From: Escherichia coli
Lineage (GTDB): Bacteria > Pseudomonadota > Gammaproteobacteria > Enterobacterales > Enterobacteriaceae
NCBI RefSeq assembly: GCF_050920415.1
Contig: NZ_CP169309.1
Direction: 5' to 3' (one strand)
Length of the DNA: 64,000 bases
Position numbers and translations under genes: made by a program. Below are positions 7,406 to 21,564 of this stretch, one piece after another (position 1 is the stretch's first letter; each line of letters opens with the position of its first letter). The notes under the pieces were generated by a model, which was not told where the DNA came from, did no database searches, and was given only the letters and a program-made list of their open reading frames with translations.

Positions 7406-9157
7406 ATGATTCAGGACGCTTTTGTGCGCCAGCGTGCGCGGCAACTTTACTGGCAGGGTTATCCGCCCGCAGAAATATCACGTCTGATGGGAATAAACCC
7501 GAACACGATTTATGCGTGGAAAAAACGCGACCAGTGGGATGAAACGCCACCCGTGCAGCGTGTCACGCAGTCCATCGATGCGCGCCTCATCCAGCTCACT
7601 GAAAAACAGAATAAAACAGGTGGTGACTTCAAGGAAATAGACCTGCTGACCCGGCAGCTTAAAAAACTGCATGATGGCCAGCCGGATGCGACGGCCACAG
7701 GAAAGAAAGGCCGGGCGAAAAAGCTTAAAAATCATTTCACGCCGGAACAGATTGCCGCACTGCGGGAAAAAATCATCAGCAGGCTGGAGTGGCATCAGCG
7801 GGGCTGGTTTGACTCCCTGACCCTTTGCAGGGAAGCAGGGATACGTAACAGGATGATCCTGAAATCCCGACAGATTGGGGCGACCTGGTATTTTGCACAG
7901 GAAGCGCTGCTGATGGCGCTGCGTGACGATGTGGCGCAACCTTACCAGCGTAACCAGATTTTTTTGTCTGCGTCGCGTCGTCAGGCGTTCCAGTTTAAAA
8001 GCATTATTCAGAAGGCCGCGGCTGAAGTTGATGTGGAGTTGAAAGGGGGCGATAAAATCATCCTCTCCAACGGCGCAGAGCTGCATTTTCTCGGCACTTC
8101 TGCTGCGTCGGCACAGTCCTATACGGGCAATTTTTATTTTGATGAATTTTTCTGGGTCAGTCGCTTTGCTGAACTGCGCAAGGTGGCTGGCGCTATGGCA
8201 ACCCTCAGCGGACTGCGGCGCACCTACTTCTCCACGCCATCCACCGAAACGCACGAGGCATACGCCTACTGGAACGGCGACCGCTGGAACGAGAAAAAGG
8301 CCACGCATAAACGCCAGCGTTTTTCTGTGGACTGGAAAACGCTGCATAACGGGCTTATCTGCCCTGACCGGACGTGGCGGCAAATTGTCACGCTGGAAGA
8401 TGTGGTTAATCACGGCTGGAAACACACCGATATCGACGAAATTCGTGATGAAAACACCGAAGACGAGTTCCTCAATCTCTATATGTGTGAGTTTGTCCGC
8501 GAAGGGGAATCGGCATTTAACCTGAATATCCTGATTGGCTGCGGTGTTGACGGATACGACGACTGGAAAGACTGGAAACCTTTTGCTCCCCGCCCGATGG
8601 GGAATCGTCCGGTATGGATTGGGTATGACGCAAACGGCAGCAGTGGCAACGGCGACAGCGGCGCTGTGTCCGTGGTGGTTCCTCCGTCTGTTCCTGGTGG
8701 CCGTTTTCGAACGGTGGAGACGCGACGCGCTCAGGGGCTGGAGTTTGAAGAACAGGCCAGAGTCATTGAAGAGTTCACGTGTCGCTACAACGTGGAACAC
8801 ATCGGCATTGATGTGACGGGCGGGAACGGGGAGGCTGTTTATCAGATAGTGAAACGGTTTTTCCCTGCCGCTATTCCGTACACCTTCACGCTGTCATCAA
8901 AACGGTCGCTGGTACTGAAAATGCTGCAAATAATGCGTGCCGGGCGGTGGGAATACGATCGCGCCGAACGCGAGCTGGTCGCGGCCTTTAACGCCGTGCG
9001 TAAGGTGAAAACACCGGGCGGCTTTATCACTTACGAAACGGACCGCGCGAGGGGGATCAGCCACGGCGACCTTGCGTGGGCAACCATGCTTGCTGTCATT
9101 AACGAACCAATTGGCGGCGAAGGAGAAAACGAGCGTTTCACGGTTATGGAGTTCTGA
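7406..9157 (+). CDS. terminase large (ATPase) subunit P
   Basis: 583-aa ORF divergent from O, P2 gpP-like size and position. Confidence 0.8.
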   Translation: MIQDAFVRQRARQLYWQGYPPAEISRLMGINPNTIYAWKKRDQWDETPPVQRVTQSIDARLIQLTEKQNKTGGDFKEIDLLTRQLKKLHDGQPDATATGKKGRAKKLKNHFTPEQIAALREKIISRLEWHQRGWFDSLTLCREAGIRNRMILKSRQIGATWYFAQEALLMALRDDVAQPYQRNQIFLSASRRQAFQFKSIIQKAAAEVDVELKGGDKIILSNGAELHFLGTSAASAQSYTGNFYFDEFFWVSRFAELRKVAGAMATLSGLRRTYFSTPSTETHEAYAYWNGDRWNEKKATHKRQRFSVDWKTLHNGLICPDRTWRQIVTLEDVVNHGWKHTDIDEIRDENTEDEFLNLYMCEFVREGESAFNLNILIGCGVDGYDDWKDWKPFAPRPMGNRPVWIGYDANGSSGNGDSGAVSVVVPPSVPGGRFRTVETRRAQGLEFEEQARVIEEFTCRYNVEHIGIDVTGGNGEAVYQIVKRFFPAAIPYTFTLSSKRSLVLKMLQIMRAGRWEYDRAERELVAAFNAVRKVKTPGGFITYETDRARGISHGDLAWATMLAVINEPIGGEGENERFTVMEF

Positions 9158-10203
9158 TGAGCAGAAAAAATAAAAAAGTGCGCATGAGTTCACGCATTGA
9201 TCTCGCTGATGCGCTCAGGAAAGAATCATCGCTCAGTGCATTCACATTTGATGGTCCTTATCGCCTGACCGGGCATGACCTGCTGGACAATATGTACTGT
9301 GCTGATAACGGGCGGTGGTATGAAACCCCGGTGGACTGGTACGGTCTGGCAAGAGCCGCCCGGCAAACGTCCTGGCATCAGTCTGCGCTTTACTTTAAGC
9401 GCAATGTATTGCTCGGTTGCTACATCCCGCACCCGCTGCTTTCCCGGCAGGATTTCTCGGCGCTGGCGCTGGACTGGTTTGTGTTCGGTAACGCATTCCT
9501 TGAGCTTCGAAGCAATATGCTCGGCGAACCGCTTAAATTACGGCACGCCCTGGCGAAATACATGCGACGCGGAAGCGATCTTGAATCATGGTGGTATGTG
9601 CAGGATGGCAAGGATGCGTTTCAGTTTCGCCCAGGCAAAGTGTGCCACCTGATGAATCCGGACATTAACCAGGAAATCTACGGCATGCCGGAATATCTCG
9701 GCGCATTACTCTCGGCCAGCCTGTCTCATTCGGCGGACATGTTCAGAAAACTGTATTACGACAACGGATCCCACGCCGGGTGCATCATCTACATCGGTGC
9801 AGCGCAGGTAAACCGCGAAAGCATGGACTCCCTGAAAGAAACGCTACAGGGTGCGCGTGGTGGTGGTGCGTTTAAAAACGTGCTCATTCATGCGCCCAAC
9901 GGGGGCAAAGAGGGGGTGCAAATTTTGCCGTTCCAGCAGATCACCGCAAAGGATGAGTTCATGAATGTTAAGGCGGCATCCCGTGATGATGTGCTGGCTG
10001 CGCACCGCGTTCCGCCGCAACTGATGGGGGCGATGCCGGGTGAAAAAAGTGCGTTTGGTGATGTGGAGAAGGCCGCGCGGGTTTACGCAATTAACGAGCT
10101 GATGCCCGTCATGGAGGCCATGAAGCATATCAATGACTGGCTTGGCGAAGAGGTGCTCCGCTTTAACCCTTACGCACTGCTGGACACCCAGCCCACATCC
10201 TGA
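9157..10203 (+). CDS. portal protein Q
   Basis: 348-aa ORF directly downstream of P, start overlapping P stop; P2 gpQ-like size. Confidence 0.8.
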   Translation: MSRKNKKVRMSSRIDLADALRKESSLSAFTFDGPYRLTGHDLLDNMYCADNGRWYETPVDWYGLARAARQTSWHQSALYFKRNVLLGCYIPHPLLSRQDFSALALDWFVFGNAFLELRSNMLGEPLKLRHALAKYMRRGSDLESWWYVQDGKDAFQFRPGKVCHLMNPDINQEIYGMPEYLGALLSASLSHSADMFRKLYYDNGSHAGCIIYIGAAQVNRESMDSLKETLQGARGGGAFKNVLIHAPNGGKEGVQILPFQQITAKDEFMNVKAASRDDVLAAHRVPPQLMGAMPGEKSAFGDVEKAARVYAINELMPVMEAMKHINDWLGEEVLRFNPYALLDTQPTS

Positions 10204-10694
10204 CGCGCTTCGCTTGTCTGCTGCTTCGCCGGGGCATAAAAAATTTATGCCCCGACTCTCCAGCTCCTGTATCAGTCAGATAATTTCACGACGCCTTCCA
10301 GTTTATCGCCACTATCGACAGTCAGACTCTTACGCAATCCCACTGCGCTGACTGCATGTTCTCGCCGCCTCAGTGCGATTTTGACGGCCTTATCTGCCAC
10401 CCCGTCAAATCAAAAGCCCTCACGTCTTTTTCACGCTCAGCGTGAGAAATACAGCCATTCTGTTGTGTCGCTGCGACATCGTTCAGGGGATGCTATTTAC
10501 CCCCTGAAACGCGGGCTGTTCCCCCGTCACCTGCGCGTAGAAAAAGCGCGTTTTTTTGTGCACGCACGGATCCTTGACGGATCCAGCCGCCACGCGGGCC
10601 GGAAGGGCAAAAAGTCGTTCAAAAAAATTGTGCAAATTTGTGCACTATTGTGCATTGAAATAAACGCCCTGGAAGAGGGCGTTTTGGCTCATTT
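10204..10694. other. non-coding region in the position of P2 cos / packaging site
   Basis: About 490 bp without credible ORF between portal Q and the accessory operon; contains three TGTGCA repeats (10631-10659) and a bidirectional hairpin cgccctggaagagggcg with flanking T/A runs. Cohesive-end sequence itself not identified. Confidence 0.35.
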
Positions 10695-10955
10695 CTATAG
10701 CTTTGATGCAGGCTGGGCTAGATGTAAGGGTTGGACATACCAGCCTTTTGATAACCAACTCTCTGCAACATCTTTACTCCTTGTTATTGCTGGTATTCCG
10801 ATGCCGTTATTTACATGCATCCATGCTACTGGCTCTGCTTCCAGCGATGCCAGTGCAATTTCATAAGCACGGCGTTCAATATTGTCTCGAACGTCCAGGC
10901 TGCCGATGCGCTCTTTGATTTCTTTAATCAGTTCTTTGTCGGTGAACGTTGTCAT
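10695..10955 (-). CDS. hypothetical protein (accessory operon, last gene)
   Basis: 86-aa ORF, no recognisable domain. Confidence 0.45.
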   Translation of the reverse strand: MTTFTDKELIKEIKERIGSLDVRDNIERRAYEIALASLEAEPVAWMHVNNGIGIPAITRSKDVAESWLSKGWYVQPLHLAQPASKL

Positions 10956-10965
10956 GTGTTAGTCC

Positions 10966-11229
10966 TTATCCTGCTGTGCTTTCAACTGATGAGGGGAACA
11001 AAATCTTTTCATCAAATCCGGCATTCATATCATGGACAGCAACACACCAATCCATCGACGAACGATTATCAAGAGCCTCCATGATTTCATCCATGCGGCG
11101 TAGGTCATACAGGTAAATGTTTTTATCGCCAATGGTGTAAAAACCAATTTTTTTCGGTGATGGACAGCGATCAAGAACGTCCTGTAATTCGTTCAACCAT
11201 GCCTGTTCTTTTTTTGTCAACGTTGCCAT
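10966..11229 (-). CDS. hypothetical protein (accessory operon)
   Basis: 87-aa product from internal Met MATLTKKEQAW; start trimmed to avoid overlap with upstream gene. Confidence 0.4.
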   Translation of the reverse strand: MATLTKKEQAWLNELQDVLDRCPSPKKIGFYTIGDKNIYLYDLRRMDEIMEALDNRSSMDWCVAVHDMNAGFDEKILFPSSVESTAG

Positions 11230-11230
11230 A

Positions 11231-11449
11231 TCAGTTTTCCTTATACGGATTAATTTTATTGTGCAATGTGTTGAACGACGCCCATACCACGTCGTTATAC
11301 AATTCAATAACTGGCTCAATTATTTTCCCGATTGCCCAGATAAAAATTAGCGGGGATATCGGTATCATCAACACGATAAACAGAATGAGAAACAGAAATT
11401 CTATTGCTCTACTCTTTCGCGGATAGTTTTTCCTGAATAGTGTAGGCAC
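11231..11449 (-). CDS. small membrane protein (accessory operon)
   Basis: 72 aa, GTG start preceded by AAGGAG; hydrophobic core FLFLILFIVLMIPISPLIFIWAIG; AT-rich. Confidence 0.45.
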   Translation of the reverse strand: MPTLFRKNYPRKSRAIEFLFLILFIVLMIPISPLIFIWAIGKIIEPVIELYNDVVWASFNTLHNKINPYKEN

Positions 11450-11450
11450 C

Positions 11451-11645
11451 TCACTCTCCTTTAATGCGAAAGTGGTTTTTCCAGCGGTTTTGCGCCGCGC
11501 TGGGCTTTTTGCAAAAACCGCAATCCATCATCCCGTAATATTTCATCAACCCCATTCGTCGGTTGCTGAGTCTCACCCACTGCCATACGCCTGGATCGTT
11601 TCTGCGAACTAACAGAATCTTTGCTTTACGGTTGTTGGTTGCCAT
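11451..11645 (-). CDS. small basic protein (accessory operon)
   Basis: 64 aa from ATG at 11645, preceded by AAGGGAGG Shine-Dalgarno. Confidence 0.45.
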   Translation of the reverse strand: MATNNRKAKILLVRRNDPGVWQWVRLSNRRMGLMKYYGMMDCGFCKKPSAAQNRWKNHFRIKGE

Positions 11646-11961
11646 ATCCCCCTCCCTTGATACCAATATTTACAACATGGCAAGCCTCTTTGAGCACCCA
11701 GTCAACAGCGTCTTTCCATGCTCCGGTTTCGGCTGGCGGATTCTCACGCTTTACCAGTTCATAGAAACGTACTGCTCTAACCAGTCCATCTGACGGTTTT
11801 GCCTGTAGTGCAGCCTGAGCTATGCGGTATGCCTGGAGTATACGGGCGTCGTTGATATCCATTCCGAACGGAATTTCTGATGATTGTGATTCTGCATCTT
11901 CAAGCCTGGCAATTTCTTTACGTAAGAAGTATTTCAACTCTTGTTTTTGTTTTCTGTTCAT
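11626..11961 (-). CDS. hypothetical protein (accessory operon)
   Basis: 111 aa; ATGA start/stop overlap with upstream zinc-finger gene; AAGGGA Shine-Dalgarno. Confidence 0.5.
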
Positions 11962-12290
11962 GCGTTTTTTCCCTTTTTGTCTGTCACTTCTCTCCTGATA
12001 ATTTCATTGCACAAATCCACGCACTCATTGCAGATGTAAACAGACGGTCCAGCAATCACCTTTGTGACTTCGTACTGGGATTTATTGCAGAAGCTGCAAT
12101 AAATCGTCTCCTCACCTGAAGTCCATGTTTTGCTGGTTTCGCCAGACATCAGTTGTTTGAGGTCTTTTTCACGACGAAGAACTATCTGGCCACATTCAGC
12201 TATTTTTTGGATGTTGACATTTTCTTCTTTCGCCAGCGCTTCCATCCGCTCAATCAGTCGCTGCGCTTTTTCTCTGTCAATGTGTTGCAT
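11958..12290 (-). CDS. small protein with C-terminal ClpX-type C4 zinc-finger domain
   Basis: Segment [40 protein letters not shown] closely matches the recalled N-terminal zinc-binding domain of ClpX ([40 protein letters not shown]); no AAA+ domain follows. AAGGGGGA Shine-Dalgarno. Confidence 0.6.
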
Positions 12291-12353
12291 TGTGTCCCCC
12301 TTGTTTATGCTCCCGGGTTAAAGTCATCAGGGCGGATGCGCCCTGATGTTGTG

Positions 12354-12665
12354 TTATTCGGGAAATAACGCCCGGATATTTCCGGCCATCTGACTGGTTA
12401 TCTGTGCGGCTGATACTGGCTGTGACGCGGGGCGTTCTGTCCTGGGTTGTGTCACTGATAACGCCTCATCATCAGCCCATGCAGCCAGTCGGTAAGCCTC
12501 TGCCGGATTCATTTTCAGTAGTGCCAGCCCGGCCAGAAAAGCCACGCGTTGACCACTTTTGCGGGCTTCTGGTGTAAGGCTGTCCAGCCAGGCGCATGCT
12601 TCGCCTTCGTTCTTGACGGCGGCGGGCTTCAGATAGAAACTTATCCGTCTGGTTGGTGTCGTCAT
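12354..12665 (-). CDS. ParR-like centromere-binding protein (ribbon-helix-helix)
   Basis: 103 aa; RRISFYLKP...WLDSL...FLAGLALL...NIRALFPE resembles recalled plasmid R1 ParR (RRTIAFKLNP...TLDSI...LTAGLALY...ILRSLFPKE); directly downstream of the ParM-like gene with AAGGAG Shine-Dalgarno. Confidence 0.6.
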   Translation of the reverse strand: MTTPTRRISFYLKPAAVKNEGEACAWLDSLTPEARKSGQRVAFLAGLALLKMNPAEAYRLAAWADDEALSVTQPRTERPASQPVSAAQITSQMAGNIRALFPE

Positions 12666-12669
12666 TGGC

Positions 12670-13629
12670 TTACTCCTTGTCCATTGCGTACAGCCCATTA
12701 ACCAGAGCAAACTGTGGCACCCCGTCCGCGATGAAAGTCGCATTAACTCCGCAGGCTTCGCGGATAGCGGGTGCCACAATCTCCGCCCCGCCACCGACAA
12801 CCATCACCCGCCCGTAACCCGAAAAACCCGCCAGCGCGCGGATCACGCGTTGTTTCAGTGTTTCTTCCTTTTCACGAATAACCGCCATCAGGCTGGCGTA
12901 ATGCGCGTCATTGTGGATGTGCTGGCGCAGCCAGGCTTCATCATGGCGATGTTCAATAATGGTATTGGCGATGTGGTGACTGGTGCGCATACCGTTAGTG
13001 GCCATCACCGACAGCACGGCATCGGCCATCAGTGAAACACCTACGTGTGGATCGCAAAACACCTGGCTGATACCTGCCAGTTGTCCCTGAACCTTTGCCA
13101 CATCCAGCGTGGTTCCGCCCAAATCCACAATCAGCAGGGATTCAAACGGACTCATGTCAGCCAGTGCCTTAAAGCCTGCCGGAATGGATTCAGGCATAAC
13201 CCGCACGTTACGGATAGTGAATGCCTCACCGTTCTGGTACTCCACCGGGCGCATAACGTTCGCTTTTTTGCGGTTGATGTTGGCCATGTCCGGCTGTGCG
13301 TTTGTGTCGAAATACTCGCTCAGTGGCAGGGTGACAACCACATCCACCTCCTGTGGCGTGATGCCTGATTTGACCAGCGCGTGATGAATGGCAATGACAT
13401 TCACATCGCTGTATTGGTATTGCGTGTCGGTCGTCTGGACAAAGCGATCGCTGACCGGATCAAAACCATAGCGCACGCCATCAAGCATGTAGTTCGCGGG
13501 CTGCGTGCCACCGAACGGCGCAGACCATTCCGACTTGAAGCTGTTCGGGCTGATGGCGTTGCGGCGTTCGCCGTTCTCAGTCCATGCCAGCTTGATGTTG
13601 GTGGAGCCGTCGTCGATACAAATTTTCAT
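12670..13629 (-). CDS. ParM/StbA-like actin-fold segregation ATPase
   Basis: 319 aa with the ParM nucleotide-binding motifs: MKICIDDGSTNIKLAW (phosphate 1), IVDLGGTTLDV (connect/adenosine), VMVVGGGAEI (phosphate 2). Confidence 0.8.
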   Translation of the reverse strand: MKICIDDGSTNIKLAWTENGERRNAISPNSFKSEWSAPFGGTQPANYMLDGVRYGFDPVSDRFVQTTDTQYQYSDVNVIAIHHALVKSGITPQEVDVVVTLPLSEYFDTNAQPDMANINRKKANVMRPVEYQNGEAFTIRNVRVMPESIPAGFKALADMSPFESLLIVDLGGTTLDVAKVQGQLAGISQVFCDPHVGVSLMADAVLSVMATNGMRTSHHIANTIIEHRHDEAWLRQHIHNDAHYASLMAVIREKEETLKQRVIRALAGFSGYGRVMVVGGGAEIVAPAIREACGVNATFIADGVPQFALVNGLYAMDKE

Positions 13630-13660
13630 GTCGCTTTTCCTTATGTTGATTAATTAATCG

Positions 13661-13760
13661 TTTACGGGATTCTGAAATCCCGTTTTTGCCTGCTTTGTGC
13701 GCGCTTCATATATCACTGCGCGTTTTTTGCTCATTTACGGGATTCGTGAGTCCCGTTTCT
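13661..13760. repeat. two direct copies of a 27-bp hairpin-containing repeat upstream of the ParM-like gene
   Basis: TTTACGGGATTCTGAAATCCCGTTTTT (13661-13687) and TTTACGGGATTCGTGAGTCCCGTTTCT (13734-13760), 22/27 identical, each an ACGGGA/TCCCGT inverted repeat; the second lies inside the 3' end of gene A. Confidence 0.5.
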
Positions 13761-16528
13761 GTCTGTTTTTTGTTTCCGCTGGTCAGGCCACCCCGCAGCA
13801 GGTCTGCTTTGCGGCTGGCGCGTTCAGTGGTTTCACTGATTCTCTGTGCGTGCTCTGCGTCGCGGATGGCGCGCAGCATGTCAGAAAGCACAGTAACGGG
13901 TGTTTTCATGGTGTTCTGGTCCTGCTGAAGTGTGGATGCCAGGCGTGCGGCGGCTTCAGGGTCTGATGCCCCCAGCTGTGCCAGATAGCTGGCGACCGGG
14001 TTATGGCGGATCTCCGTGCTGCTTACGCCATGATTACGGCTCAGGCGCTGCCAGAGCTGCGTGATTCGGCTGTCCGGGCGGGTATCCGGTTTGCGTACAA
14101 TTTCAAATCCCTGCGGTGCAATGATGCTGCCGTCAACGTACAGACTGCCGCCCCGTAACAGGTGCTGCATCTGTTGTTCACCGATATGCAGGCCGAGAGA
14201 TTCAGCAGACTCCCGCCATTCTTTAGCGAGTAATTCGTGGTTATCAGGCAAAGGCCGCTGCTGTTTGCGGCTCTGTGTCCAGCTCTGCATTTCATCACTG
14301 CTGTTTTTTGCCTGTTTGTCACGAAGCGAACGCATCAGCGCCCGGCGTTCGTGCCGTTTCAGTGAGCGCATCCATTCGTTCACTTCAACGCCGTCAGGGA
14401 GCTGCGGCCACGGTGCTGGCCGTTCTTCCGGCTGTTCTGTCCCGTTGTTGTCCGTTTCCTGTGCACGGGGACAGTTATTGCCACGAGTCCAAGGGGCGGC
14501 AGGGCCGCCCTGAAGGTCAAAACCATTTTCGTGGGCGTTGTCTCCCGGTTCTGGTTTACGTCTTACCAGCTTCCAGTTATCCGGATGCGTGCACACACGG
14601 GAGGATTCCCCGATGAGTGGTGACCAGATCCCGTAAATCTGTACGCTCTGTTCGCCGTAATCGTTCAGCTCATCTGCGAGGTCGTAGGCGGTGCGAATCA
14701 GGTAGTCCTTGCGTGGAACAAGCACGCCACCCTGTTTTTCAATGTAGGTGGCAAAACACCCGGCATCGGCGGCAGCGAGTACCGCATCCATTGCATCATC
14801 TTTCAGCCGTTGCGGGCCTTCCGGATTGCGTGCCATCTGGCTGGCAAGGCGGCGCAGTTCACGCCACACCTGACGGGAGGGGATGCCAAAGAACTGGAAC
14901 TGACGGACCCGGTGAAGGCGCGCCCAGCCGATGGCGCGCTCCACGCTCTCGGCCATTGATTTTCCGGTTTCGTGGTCAACGCGTGGCTTGCCCGTTTTCG
15001 GGTCGATGCCATCCACGGCGCGGCTGTCCAGGTTCTTTCCGATGTAGGTGGCGATGTAGCTGGTTGGTGTGCCTTTTGAGCCGTCGACATACTCCGCCTT
15101 AAAACGCGGAGTTATGTCATCGCCCAGCTCGTGGCGGTCCTCCTGAATGGCAATATCGCAGACGTGGGACACGATGGTTTCAATCTCGTCCGGATGTGCA
15201 AAGACCATCATATGCCAGTGCACAGTGCCGTCATGGTGAGGCTCCACCGTGCGGATGCCATACCAGCGCAGGCCGTCGCGGTTCAGTTTTTTGCGGACCG
15301 CCGCAAAAAACGTGTTAACCAGGTAATCGCTGGAGTCGCGCATGGTGGCCCCGTTCCATTTGGGGTTCGGATGACCGTTCTCCGTTGTTGCGTGGTATTT
15401 TGACGGGCAGGTGACGGTCAGAAACACCGCTCTGTCGCCACGGGCTTCGGCCAGAAGTTCCAGTCCCTTCATGGTGGCCATCATTTCTGCCTTACGGTGA
15501 ACCGGGTTACTTACTCCCGCGTAATACACCGTCTCGAGATCAATCGTGAACCCGTCTTCATTTTCCAGCATGAAACTTTTCAGGAAATCGCGTGTTTTCT
15601 CGCGCTGTGCGCGAAACTCGCTTAACGCGTCCTGGCTCAGATAGGGGGATGTTTTTCTGGAAACCAGACAGGCGGCGCGGAGTTGTTCTTCCCGCCACTC
15701 ACAACGTAACAGCCACAGTTTGCGTTTCCACCATTCCGCACAGGTCAAGCGAAGGATTGCGCCCGGCAGCAGCTCCGTGTCCGGTTCGTTCCTCCGGTCT
15801 TTGTCTGTTGTCAGTGCGTCATAATGTGGAGGCATGGCGTGCAGGTGTAACGCCATGCGGGCCAGCATCTGATAAGCCTTCAGGGTTACATCCATGGTCA
15901 GCTCGCCATCAGTCGCGCCAAAGCCATCGCAGAGTTTTTCGAAGGTGCTGCTGAACATCGCCGCCGTCATGGTGGCCAGCGTCTGTATCTGGTGTTTGTT
16001 GAGCTGCGGCAGGTAAAGCAAATCGTCCAGGCGTTCGCGTCCGGCAAGGGAGCGATAACCCGGTGTCAGCCAGCGGTGGTCGGTGCGGTCCAGACGTTCG
16101 AATATTTTGCGCAGGGTTCCGCACGCGTAGCGTTCAGCCTGCCAGCTCTTTTTGCCTTTCCGGCGATCGGCTTCCTGTTTTTTGCGCAGGAAGGAGAGGT
16201 GGCGAATAAGCGGATCGCGCAGATAGGACGGCAGCAGGCGCAGCGAGGCCATGGCTTCATCCACCGCGCCACGTGCCTGTTTTCTGGCGTCTCCTGCCAG
16301 TGTGATGGTTTTGTCCTGTTTTTCCTGTGCGTCCAGGCTTTTATTAATCAGGTTGCCCAGCGGCGTGGCGGAGAACGCCGCATCAGCCATTTCCTGGCGG
16401 CGCTCGTTCTCTGCCCGGTAGGCATCCAGCCAGGAGGAAAGCGCGGATTCAGGAGCGGGGATCCCCGTTCCTTCACGCCCCACTGCGTGGCGCGGTTGTT
16501 GCCAGTCCCTGATGTACTCTGCCGTCAT
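13706..16528 (-). CDS. replication initiation protein A (rolling-circle nicking endonuclease, P2 gpA-like)
   Basis: 940 aa; HUH-type motif region GTVHWHMMVF and tyrosine motif TSYIATYIGK; position between early genes and accessory region. Confidence 0.8.
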   Translation of the reverse strand: MTAEYIRDWQQPRHAVGREGTGIPAPESALSSWLDAYRAENERRQEMADAAFSATPLGNLINKSLDAQEKQDKTITLAGDARKQARGAVDEAMASLRLLPSYLRDPLIRHLSFLRKKQEADRRKGKKSWQAERYACGTLRKIFERLDRTDHRWLTPGYRSLAGRERLDDLLYLPQLNKHQIQTLATMTAAMFSSTFEKLCDGFGATDGELTMDVTLKAYQMLARMALHLHAMPPHYDALTTDKDRRNEPDTELLPGAILRLTCAEWWKRKLWLLRCEWREEQLRAACLVSRKTSPYLSQDALSEFRAQREKTRDFLKSFMLENEDGFTIDLETVYYAGVSNPVHRKAEMMATMKGLELLAEARGDRAVFLTVTCPSKYHATTENGHPNPKWNGATMRDSSDYLVNTFFAAVRKKLNRDGLRWYGIRTVEPHHDGTVHWHMMVFAHPDEIETIVSHVCDIAIQEDRHELGDDITPRFKAEYVDGSKGTPTSYIATYIGKNLDSRAVDGIDPKTGKPRVDHETGKSMAESVERAIGWARLHRVRQFQFFGIPSRQVWRELRRLASQMARNPEGPQRLKDDAMDAVLAAADAGCFATYIEKQGGVLVPRKDYLIRTAYDLADELNDYGEQSVQIYGIWSPLIGESSRVCTHPDNWKLVRRKPEPGDNAHENGFDLQGGPAAPWTRGNNCPRAQETDNNGTEQPEERPAPWPQLPDGVEVNEWMRSLKRHERRALMRSLRDKQAKNSSDEMQSWTQSRKQQRPLPDNHELLAKEWRESAESLGLHIGEQQMQHLLRGGSLYVDGSIIAPQGFEIVRKPDTRPDSRITQLWQRLSRNHGVSSTEIRHNPVASYLAQLGASDPEAAARLASTLQQDQNTMKTPVTVLSDMLRAIRDAEHAQRISETTERASRKADLLRGGLTSGNKKQTETGLTNPVNEQKTRSDI

Positions 16529-20562: not shown

Positions 20563-21564
20563 ATGTCGGTTCGTAAGATTCCATCAGGTAAATGGCTTTG
20601 CGAATGTTATCCCTACGGGGCATCGGGAAAACGCATTCGTAAACAGTTTGCGACAAAAAGTGAGGCGCTCTCTTATGAGCGCCGTTTAATGAATAGTAGA
20701 GTTGGAGACGAGTTTCAAGATGGTTCTGGTCCTCGTCTTTCTGAGTTGATTGCTCGTTGGTTTGAGATGTACGGTAAAACCTTGTCCTCTGGTGCAGAGC
20801 GCAAAGTCAAACTTGAGGCGATTTGTTCCAGGCTGGGAGATCCATTTGCTTCTCAGTTTGACAAAAATATGTTTGCTACTTATCGGGAAAGAAGGCTATC
20901 AGGAGAATGGAATCCCAAGGGGAAGAAAAAACTTAGTGAAGCAACCGTTAATCGCGAGCAGTCATATCTACATGCTGTTTTTGCCGAACTGAAGCGCCTT
21001 GGGGAGTGGTCTGGTGAAAACCCCCTGACTGGTATTCGCAAGTTTCGTGAGGAAGAAAAGGAACTGGCGTTTCTGTATGTAGATGAGATTGAACGCCTTC
21101 TGATTGCGTGTGATGAGTCACGGAATAAAGATTTGGGGGTTGTTGTCCGTATTGGGCTTGCGACTGGTGCTCGGTGGAGTGAAGCAGAAGGATTAAAGCA
21201 ATCTCAAGTACTGCCCGGTCGAATCACATTTGTTAAAACTAAAGGAAAGAAGAACCGCACTGTACCGATTTCACCTCAATTGCAGGCTATGCTTCCTAAA
21301 AAACGAGGAGCGCTATTTTCACCATGTTATGAGGCTTTTGACGCTGCAATTAAGAGAGCGAAGATCGAGCTTCCTGATGGGCAATTAACTCATGTGCTAC
21401 GTCACACGTTTGCCAGTCATTTTATGATGCGGGGCGGAAATATTCTTGTGTTGCAAAAAATACTGGGGCATAGCGATATAAAAATGACTATGCGTTATGC
21501 GCATTTTGCTCCAGGTCATTTAGAGGCTGCTGTTGAATTGAACCCTTTTGACAATAGAGGGTAA
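20563..21564 (+). CDS. int: prophage integrase (tyrosine recombinase)
   Basis: 333 aa; catalytic motifs HVLRHTFASHF and TMRYAH; last prophage gene before the tRNA fragment. Confidence 0.85.
   Translation: MSVRKIPSGKWLCECYPYGASGKRIRKQFATKSEALSYERRLMNSRVGDEFQDGSGPRLSELIARWFEMYGKTLSSGAERKVKLEAICSRLGDPFASQFDKNMFATYRERRLSGEWNPKGKKKLSEATVNREQSYLHAVFAELKRLGEWSGENPLTGIRKFREEEKELAFLYVDEIERLLIACDESRNKDLGVVVRIGLATGARWSEAEGLKQSQVLPGRITFVKTKGKKNRTVPISPQLQAMLPKKRGALFSPCYEAFDAAIKRAKIELPDGQLTHVLRHTFASHFMMRGGNILVLQKILGHSDIKMTMRYAHFAPGHLEAAVELNPFDNRG

Follow-up and report, generated by a model that had tools for sequence, protein, structure and literature searches.

In the ParMRC partition system of plasmid R1, the site parC consists of two sets of five 11-bp direct iterons that flank a promoter, and each iteron is bound by one ParR dimer (PMC2241845). 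Many ParR dimers normally come together in a ring or helix, from which C-terminal tails bind ParM (PMC2241845, PMC5016525). In prophage CGP3 of Corynebacterium glutamicum, AlpC and AlpA are induced early, and the adaptor binds upstream of its own operon (PMC4446434, PMC5539076); both proteins are required for efficient replication of the phage DNA (PMC4446434). For P2-like phages of Escherichia coli, the interval between gpA and gpQ is a hotspot, in particular for defence genes, and a putative partition system, which may serve plasmid maintenance, is found in about a quarter of these phages (Rousset et al. 2022, PMC9122126). Here we describe a parM-parR pair (parMR, positions 12354–13629) and its upstream region in a P2-like prophage, within a stretch of 64,000 nucleotides of E. 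coli DNA (contig NZ_CP169309.1 of assembly GCF_050920415.1; hereafter the window).

The module itself is already known: it has been annotated and noted in print, and the idea that it serves an episome has been published (PMC9122126). An earlier note on the window, written from its letters alone, saw no obvious need for a plasmid segregation machine in an integrated prophage; that puzzle, too, is in the published account (PMC9122126), and AlpAC of CGP3 is a worked precedent for an actin-like system in an integrated prophage. Our additions are the geometry of two boxes upstream of parM, their overlap with gpA, a short ParR, the linkage of the module to gpA, and evidence of selection. As the result of a genome scan, this is correct annotation rather than discovery. 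Nonetheless, the cassette, a plasmid spindle in an integrating phage, occurs in the chromosome of about a quarter of sequenced E. coli strains. We consider it probable that parMR is a functional type II (ParMRC-like) DNA-segregation cassette, fixed in the replication region of P88-like phages, that acts on extrachromosomal phage circles. The proposal is built on features established directly: both proteins are identified and intact, selection on them is purifying, and the synteny and a bipartite box are conserved.

The ParM and ParR proteins

The genes concerned are as follows.

12354–12665, minus strand: parR, encoding a predicted ribbon-helix-helix (RHH) adaptor of 103 amino acids (aa); begins 4 nucleotides (nt) past the parM stop
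12670–13629, minus strand: parM, encoding a 319-aa actin-fold ATPase, an R1-type ParM
13706–16528, minus strand: gpA-type rolling-circle replication endonuclease of 940 aa, directly upstream of parM and co-oriented; stop codon at 13706

The 319-aa protein matches R1 ParM (1mwk) over residues 2–316 (E=9e-93, phmmer against PDB) and is ~50% identical to it over the full length. The phosphate-1 motif DDGSTNIK (residues 6–13), the catalytic E147, the phosphate-2 motif DLGGTTLD (169–176) and the adenosine motif GGGAE (279–283) are all kept. The next PDB match is DnaK, at E=0.48. Pfam assigns StbA_N (2.5e-82) and ParM_N (2e-68), and the protein matches phrog_691, “partition protein”. NCBIfam profiles were uninformative, with sub-threshold ParM/PRTRC matches only and none for ParR or gpA. 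The window protein is 100% identical to ParM of phage P88. As in R1, it is a ParM-homologous actin-fold ATPase with all three nucleotide-binding motifs, as the earlier note had proposed, and by these matches it belongs squarely to the R1-type ParM family, not to Hsp70 or the sugar kinases.

The start of parR requires comment. The mechanical open reading frame (ORF) is longer, with a TTG at 12800; the start that yields 103 aa is used by all annotated homologues. The 103-aa protein matches the Pfam family Plasmid_stab_B/StbB (PF10784, E=6.5e-24). A single-sequence phmmer search of ParR against PDB gave no matches, and a family profile was needed to reach ParR of pB171 (2JD3), which a profile of this ParR and 11 relatives matched at full length (E=3e-15). 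For an AlphaFold (AF2) model with a predicted local distance difference test (pLDDT) of 75, 2JD3 was the sole credible PDB match (prob 0.98, template-modelling score (TM) 0.53–0.60). The model has helices at 18–28, 32–52 and 54–61, a disordered linker at 66–81 and a C-terminal helix at 86–100. The β-strand RRISFYLKP and a C-terminal N-x4-F motif (NIRALFPE) are kept; R6, F10, L12, P14, N96 and F101 are invariant in an alignment of 12 ParRs, and the predicted C-terminal helix bears the N96/F101 motif. Both alignment and model indicate that P88-type ParR is without ~25 residues of a helical cap that other ParRs have past helix 3. The profile matches and the model place the 103-aa protein in the ParR/StbB family. 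There is thus a small RHH adaptor directly 3ʹ of parM, with a conserved C-terminal tail and a shortened cap. The earlier note had taken this protein for a ParR, and had named the absence of a ParR-like fold, and a place for the 319-aa protein in a different ASKHA subfamily, as outcomes that would count against it; alignment with R1 ParM and with the StbA/StbB profiles gave neither.

In many E. coli genomes, such as E41-1 and O157:H7 strains, parR has undergone allelic replacement (window 12354–12611 compared with 2241–2500 of the relative L002). The replaced allele diverges from about codon 19 on, with 55% aa identity and a synonymous divergence (dS) above 1, and it retains the β-strand and the C-terminal NIxxLFPE. 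Where the allele is replaced, parM and the boxes upstream of it are still ~98% identical.

Both genes are under purifying selection. Within the clade, the ratio of nonsynonymous to synonymous divergence (dN/dS) is 0.05–0.17 for parM and 0.13–0.35 for parR. P2-like prophages in several genera have the same gpA-parM-parR order, with flanking portal and terminase genes, at saturated synonymous sites; ParM identity to the window is 62% for Hafnia, 63% for Plesiomonas, 58% for Serratia and 54% for Enterobacter. A neighbour-joining tree has two phage-borne ParM clades, and the clade of E. coli, Plesiomonas and Hafnia has a bootstrap value of 100. ParM relatives with no more than 53% identity (Pantoea, Erwinia, Dickeya, Mangrovibacter) lie in plasmid, integrated-plasmid or integrative and conjugative element contexts, without boxes, and were used only as the outgroup. 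The module could in principle be a decaying remnant of plasmid–phage recombination that has no current function: its genes are of plasmid type, and most P2-like phages are without them. We give this explanation almost no credence. Thousands of sequences have intact parMR reading frames, dN/dS is far below 1, the synteny extends across genera at saturated dS, and the module is carried by phages that were isolated as infective virions, for example P88, PhiR44_2 and vB_EcoM-569R5.

The paired boxes upstream of parM

The region upstream of parM contains the following features.

13658–13772: two 42-nt direct repeats (13658–13699 and 13731–13772) and the 31 bp between them; 79% identical, 73 bp from start to start
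13664–13683: proximal box, palindrome ACGGGATT-CTGA-AATCCCGT; GGG-N10-CCC core at 13666–13681; at −52 from the parM ATG
13737–13756: distal box, ACGGGATTCGTGAGTCCCGT; GGG-N10-CCC core at 13739–13754; at −125 from the parM ATG

Each 42-nt repeat contains a 20-bp palindrome, ACGGGAYT-N4-AATCCCGT. Perfect matches to ACGGGA-N8-TCCCGT occur in the 64 kb only at the two box sites, and 0.08 would be expected even with one mismatch allowed. The 31 bp between the repeats include the gpA stop codon, and the distal box sits in the last codons of gpA rather than in intergenic DNA. The earlier note had described two 27-bp hairpin-containing repeats here. The repeats are real; the unit, at 42 nt, is larger, its distal copy lies inside gpA, and the hairpin is not conserved. 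We regard the proximal box as a candidate ParR site, and as a candidate for one half of a centromere or operator.

The proximal box is unchanged in six P88-like relatives, save for its outermost positions. Since the upstream regions of these six are 98% identical, conservation there says little, and the distant members of the clade are informative. Upstream of parM, the top self-similarity offset is 73 bp in E. coli, 73 bp in Hafnia and 72 bp in Plesiomonas. Each of the three lineages has exactly two GGG-N10-CCC boxes ahead of parM, where the background is 0.02–0.12 per 260 nt, at these positions relative to the ATG:

E. coli (window): distal −125, proximal −52
Hafnia: distal −128, proximal −55
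Plesiomonas: distal −131, proximal −59

This layout is retained across the three lineages despite saturated synonymous divergence. In Hafnia a gene other than gpA precedes parM, and yet the distance from the boxes to parM is unchanged. Hence, as far as this comparison goes, the boxes travel with parM. The three lineages also have in common the ParR β-strand T/N-R-R/K-I/V-S-F-Y-L, and this shared strand would be consistent with the shared GGG core of the boxes.

Could the repeats be hairpins in RNA or DNA, either intrinsic terminators or elements for mRNA processing or stability at the end of gpA, with the real ParR site elsewhere or absent? Both sites score as terminator-like on the plus strand, with a hairpin and a T-run, and the folding energies of the E. 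coli copies are −10.7 and −9.0 kcal/mol (z-scores −3.8 and −3.0). In addition, the distal copy stays with gpA where parMR is absent: in a P88-like prophage without the module (L089), the distal box at the end of gpA is retained, and everything from just past the gpA stop is lost. However, no plus-strand gene reads into the sites. Pairing in Hafnia and Plesiomonas is confined to the GGG/CCC ends, which gives stems of 3–4 bp with 10-nt loops and energies that are weak or non-significant; these ends and the 16-bp geometry are all that is retained. The two-box layout, with its spacing of 72–73 bp, is kept within ~130 nt of the parM start even without gpA upstream, as in Hafnia. We have rejected a role as hairpin or terminator, which we think quite unlikely, because stem stability is not conserved. 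For the same reason, the conserved cis feature appears to be a bipartite, double-stranded, dyad-symmetric candidate protein site.

We therefore take the bipartite layout conserved in relatives as indicating that a cis site exists, though not in R1 form. No tandem iteron array of the R1 parC kind was found upstream of parM at seed 6, only the two boxes. The earlier note had placed the repeats where a parC would be. Their position and geometry, kept in distant relatives, bear this out; their bipartite form is unlike the R1 array. The geometry kept in distant phage relatives supports a cis-acting protein site, and ParR would be the protein that binds it.

Three further observations concern this and similar sequences. 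First, a third GGG-N10-CCC box in the prophage, GGGATGCTATTTACCC, lies at 10487–10502, in a cos-proximal non-coding stretch past the portal gene. There are six GGG-N10-CCC boxes in the whole 64 kb, so this third one may be there by chance. Second, E. coli, Hafnia and Plesiomonas share a conserved block ATTAATCAA (minus strand, 13646–13654, −25 to −17 from the parM ATG), which separates the proximal box from the Shine-Dalgarno sequence. We do not claim it as a −10 element; it is too near the Shine-Dalgarno sequence to convince. Third, in the Serratia/Enterobacter clade, the second of the two phage-borne ParM clades, the upstream regions (5877–5990 of L088 and 4880–4990 of L094) have a 14–19-nt inverted repeat, GAAATAGAAAAATG or CATTTTTCTATTTC, and after it a pair of 11-nt direct repeats with a spacing of 32 bp. 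This layout suggests an independently evolved ParR site.

Carrier, gene context and probable role

The cassette lies in the E. coli chromosome, and its carrier element is a P88-like (Xuanwuvirus, Peduoviridae) P2-type prophage.

20563–21564: integrase, adjoining yecA/tyrP of the E. coli chromosome, with 98.9% identity to E. coli genomes

The junction confirms that the prophage is integrated, at yecA, as the earlier note had held. The 1.5-kb parMR region is 94–98% identical to phages P88, PhiR44_2, P884B11, Citrobacter phiSM and others, and the existing annotations in P88, phiSM and RefSeq read “plasmid segregation protein ParM” or “partition protein”. In a collection of 5426 complete E. coli genomes, 1302 (~24%) have parM, and 1440 of its 1442 placements are chromosomal. 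At a coverage of at least 80%, 1278 of these genomes have parM and 1353 have the 3ʹ half of the P88-type gpA; the two are tightly linked. A scan of viral contigs returned only loci that are 99–100% identical, and so had no power for comparison.

How is parMR likely to be expressed? The gpA protein matches phrog_91, “nicking at origin of replication” (1.7e-273), and is annotated as a replication endonuclease in P88 and RefSeq. The gap between gpA and parM is 76 bp, and that between parM and parR is 4 nt. A terminator scan found no minus-strand terminator between gpA and parM, and a sigma-70 scan of 12100–14200 found no promoter, including between or beside the boxes. In P88, cox through gpA, ParM, ParR and gp19–22 are all on one strand. 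Since parMR lies directly past gpA, on the same strand and with no terminator between them, read-through from the early operon is the simplest reading of this layout.

12325–12348: GC-rich hairpin with a 10-bp stem, just past the parR stop; possible end of the parMR unit

This hairpin is not kept in the E41-1 or Salmonella relatives, in which the sequence diverges right past parR. Scans of the region for Rfam families and tRNA genes gave no match.

The module lies between gpA and the portal gene (9157–10203), that is, in the gpA–gpQ hotspot. A co-opted role there, in superinfection exclusion, interference with satellites (P4) or manipulation of the host rather than in DNA movement, would suit its location in a hotspot for defence (PMC9122126) and the defence-like cargo that adjoins it in relatives, such as HicAB and a KAP NTPase. 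However, the genes 3ʹ of parR vary in every relative (L002, L088, L090, L091, L093, L094; window 10695–12290). Elsewhere they encode DUF4760, DUF3800, a single-stranded DNA-binding protein, a helix-turn-helix/M78 peptidase (Peptidase_M78), HicAB or the KAP NTPase; here there is a ClpX-zinc-ribbon-like ORF. parMR is therefore not hotspot cargo, but the constant left edge of the P2 hotspot, attached to gpA, and the variable cargo starts past parR. This is the opposite of hotspot behaviour. Furthermore, ParM, ParR and the upstream site are kept complete, as expected for DNA transport. PADLOC models gave no match for ParM, ParR or the four small ORFs downstream, and for this reason we rejected a defence system; co-option in general we judge very unlikely.

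The ClpX-like ORF (110 aa; 11958–12290, minus strand) lies just 3ʹ of parR. Over its last ~47 residues the protein matches the C4 zinc ribbon found at the N terminus of ClpX (TIGR00382, E=2e-13; also phrog_6797), and it is annotated “ClpX” in P88. It is a free-standing protein like the ClpX zinc-binding domain, and could interfere with, or mimic, the binding of ClpX to substrates or adaptors.

Two database records deserve mention. NZ_CP148288.1 (L097; PLSDB), a circular record of 34,461 bp entered as a plasmid, is an entire P88-like genome closed at attP, with the integrase beside ogr/hok/methyltransferase. Excised or replicating phage DNA could account for it, as could an episome. P88-like circles thus do occur. 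The second is the Salmonella record NZ_CP110658.1 (L003, 104744–135700), typed as an IncHI2A plasmid, which has rplS, aroF, tyrA and pheA together with a sopE-carrying P2-like prophage whose ParM is identical to that of the window. Either a plasmid took up a chromosomal segment, or the two were joined in assembly.

Rousset et al. (2022, PMC9122126) and the earlier note both raised an episomal phase. In such a plasmid-prophage lifestyle, P88-like phages would persist in a phage-plasmid or carrier state, as low-copy episomes whose stable inheritance the cassette secures, just as ParMRC does for R1. The circular record fits, and a StbA-type ParM (47.8% identity) is found on the plasmid prophage D6. 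However, the same record is equally explained by excised or replicating DNA from spontaneous induction, and all but two of the parM placements in complete E. coli genomes are chromosomal. The integrase is kept in all relatives, and the window copy is integrated. Moreover, among replication functions only the rolling-circle endonuclease gpA was seen, in a repressor-controlled early operon; no theta-type plasmid replicon was seen. Stable episomal inheritance is therefore, in our view, unlikely.

We favour a role in handling circular extrachromosomal phage DNA, early after infection or after excision and induction, rather than the integrated prophage. P2-type phages make monomeric circles by rolling-circle replication at this stage. 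ParR dimers would bind the two GGG-N10-CCC boxes just upstream of parM, which are 73 bp, or seven helical turns, apart. The conserved C-terminal helix of ParR would dock on ParM, as its N-x4-F tail and the R1 structures suggest. Filaments of ATP-bound ParM, capped by ParR–DNA complexes, might then push phage genome copies or bring them into position. parMR would be expressed with the early (lytic/replication) operon, and the phage could gain by replicating or distributing its circles efficiently, much as with AlpAC in CGP3.

Several points weigh against this proposal. There are two boxes only, as opposed to the ten 11-bp iterons of R1 and its many-dimer ParR ring or helix, and P88-type ParR is short of ~25 helical-cap residues. 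A true filament-capping segrosome therefore need not form, and the boxes might serve solely as an operator. A relative that has no parMR still retains the distal box. The timing of expression is deduced from gene layout. In the searchable literature we found no functional study of the module, and no data on ParR–DNA binding, filaments or expression. Finally, P2 and 186 have no such module, and P2-type replication can therefore dispense with it.

With these points in mind, we tentatively suggest a more specific version of the proposal: a pared-down ParMRC, with a short ParR and a minimal two-box centromere, would position or separate rolling-circle phage circles in establishment or lytic growth. 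A stronger version would be a genuine episomal carrier state. Either would give E. coli a widespread counterpart of AlpAC (~24% of complete genomes), and would provide a natural test of the minimum number of ParR dimers able to cap a ParM filament. Indeed, the two-box site and the short ParR would make a useful minimal system for studying the capping of ParM filaments by ParR–DNA complexes. More generally, if the module organises phage DNA, the phage-cytoskeleton theme of AlpAC and PhuZ extends to common enterobacterial P2-like phages, a group that includes sopE-carrying Salmonella prophages.

Comparison with known systems

The partition system reported from the hotspot by Rousset et al. is the same as the one described here: it belongs to E. 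coli P2-like prophages, lies between gpA and the portal gene, and is carried by about a quarter of the phages. They list it as hotspot content without analysis, whereas we describe it as a constant module fused to gpA.

AlpAC/alpS of CGP3 is likewise an actin-like ATPase with a DNA-binding adaptor (predicted for the P88-type module) encoded by a chromosomally integrated prophage, and it acts on circular phage DNA (PMC4446434, PMC5539076). Of the features of AlpACS, location in an integrated prophage and an upstream site are found here too, and early expression would follow from the place of parMR past gpA without a terminator. In contrast to the P88-type module, AlpC is a distant Alp and not R1-type, the host is Gram-positive, and the prophage is large and cryptic. 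The function of AlpAC was shown by experiment, whereas that of the P88-type module is a proposal. The plasmid prophage D6 (P1-like) resembles P88-like phages in carrying an R1-type ParM of the StbA type. D6, unlike these integrating phages, is a 91-kb plasmid prophage, for which a partition role is obvious.

The differences from R1 concern the carrier, the site and the adaptor. The P88-type module is on an integrating P2-type phage, not a plasmid. In place of the two sets of five iterons of parC, the candidate site is two palindromic boxes of 16–20 bp, 73 bp apart, at which no sigma-70 consensus promoter was found. ParR, at 103 aa, is without the ~25 residues of the helical cap. The module also has much in common with ParMRC of R1/NR1, in which ParM is StbA and ParR is StbB. 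The nucleotide-binding motifs are identical, and about half of the ParM residues are the same; the ParRs belong to one Pfam family and have the RHH β-strand and the conserved C-terminal tail; and the order is site-parM-parR, with the two genes tightly coupled.

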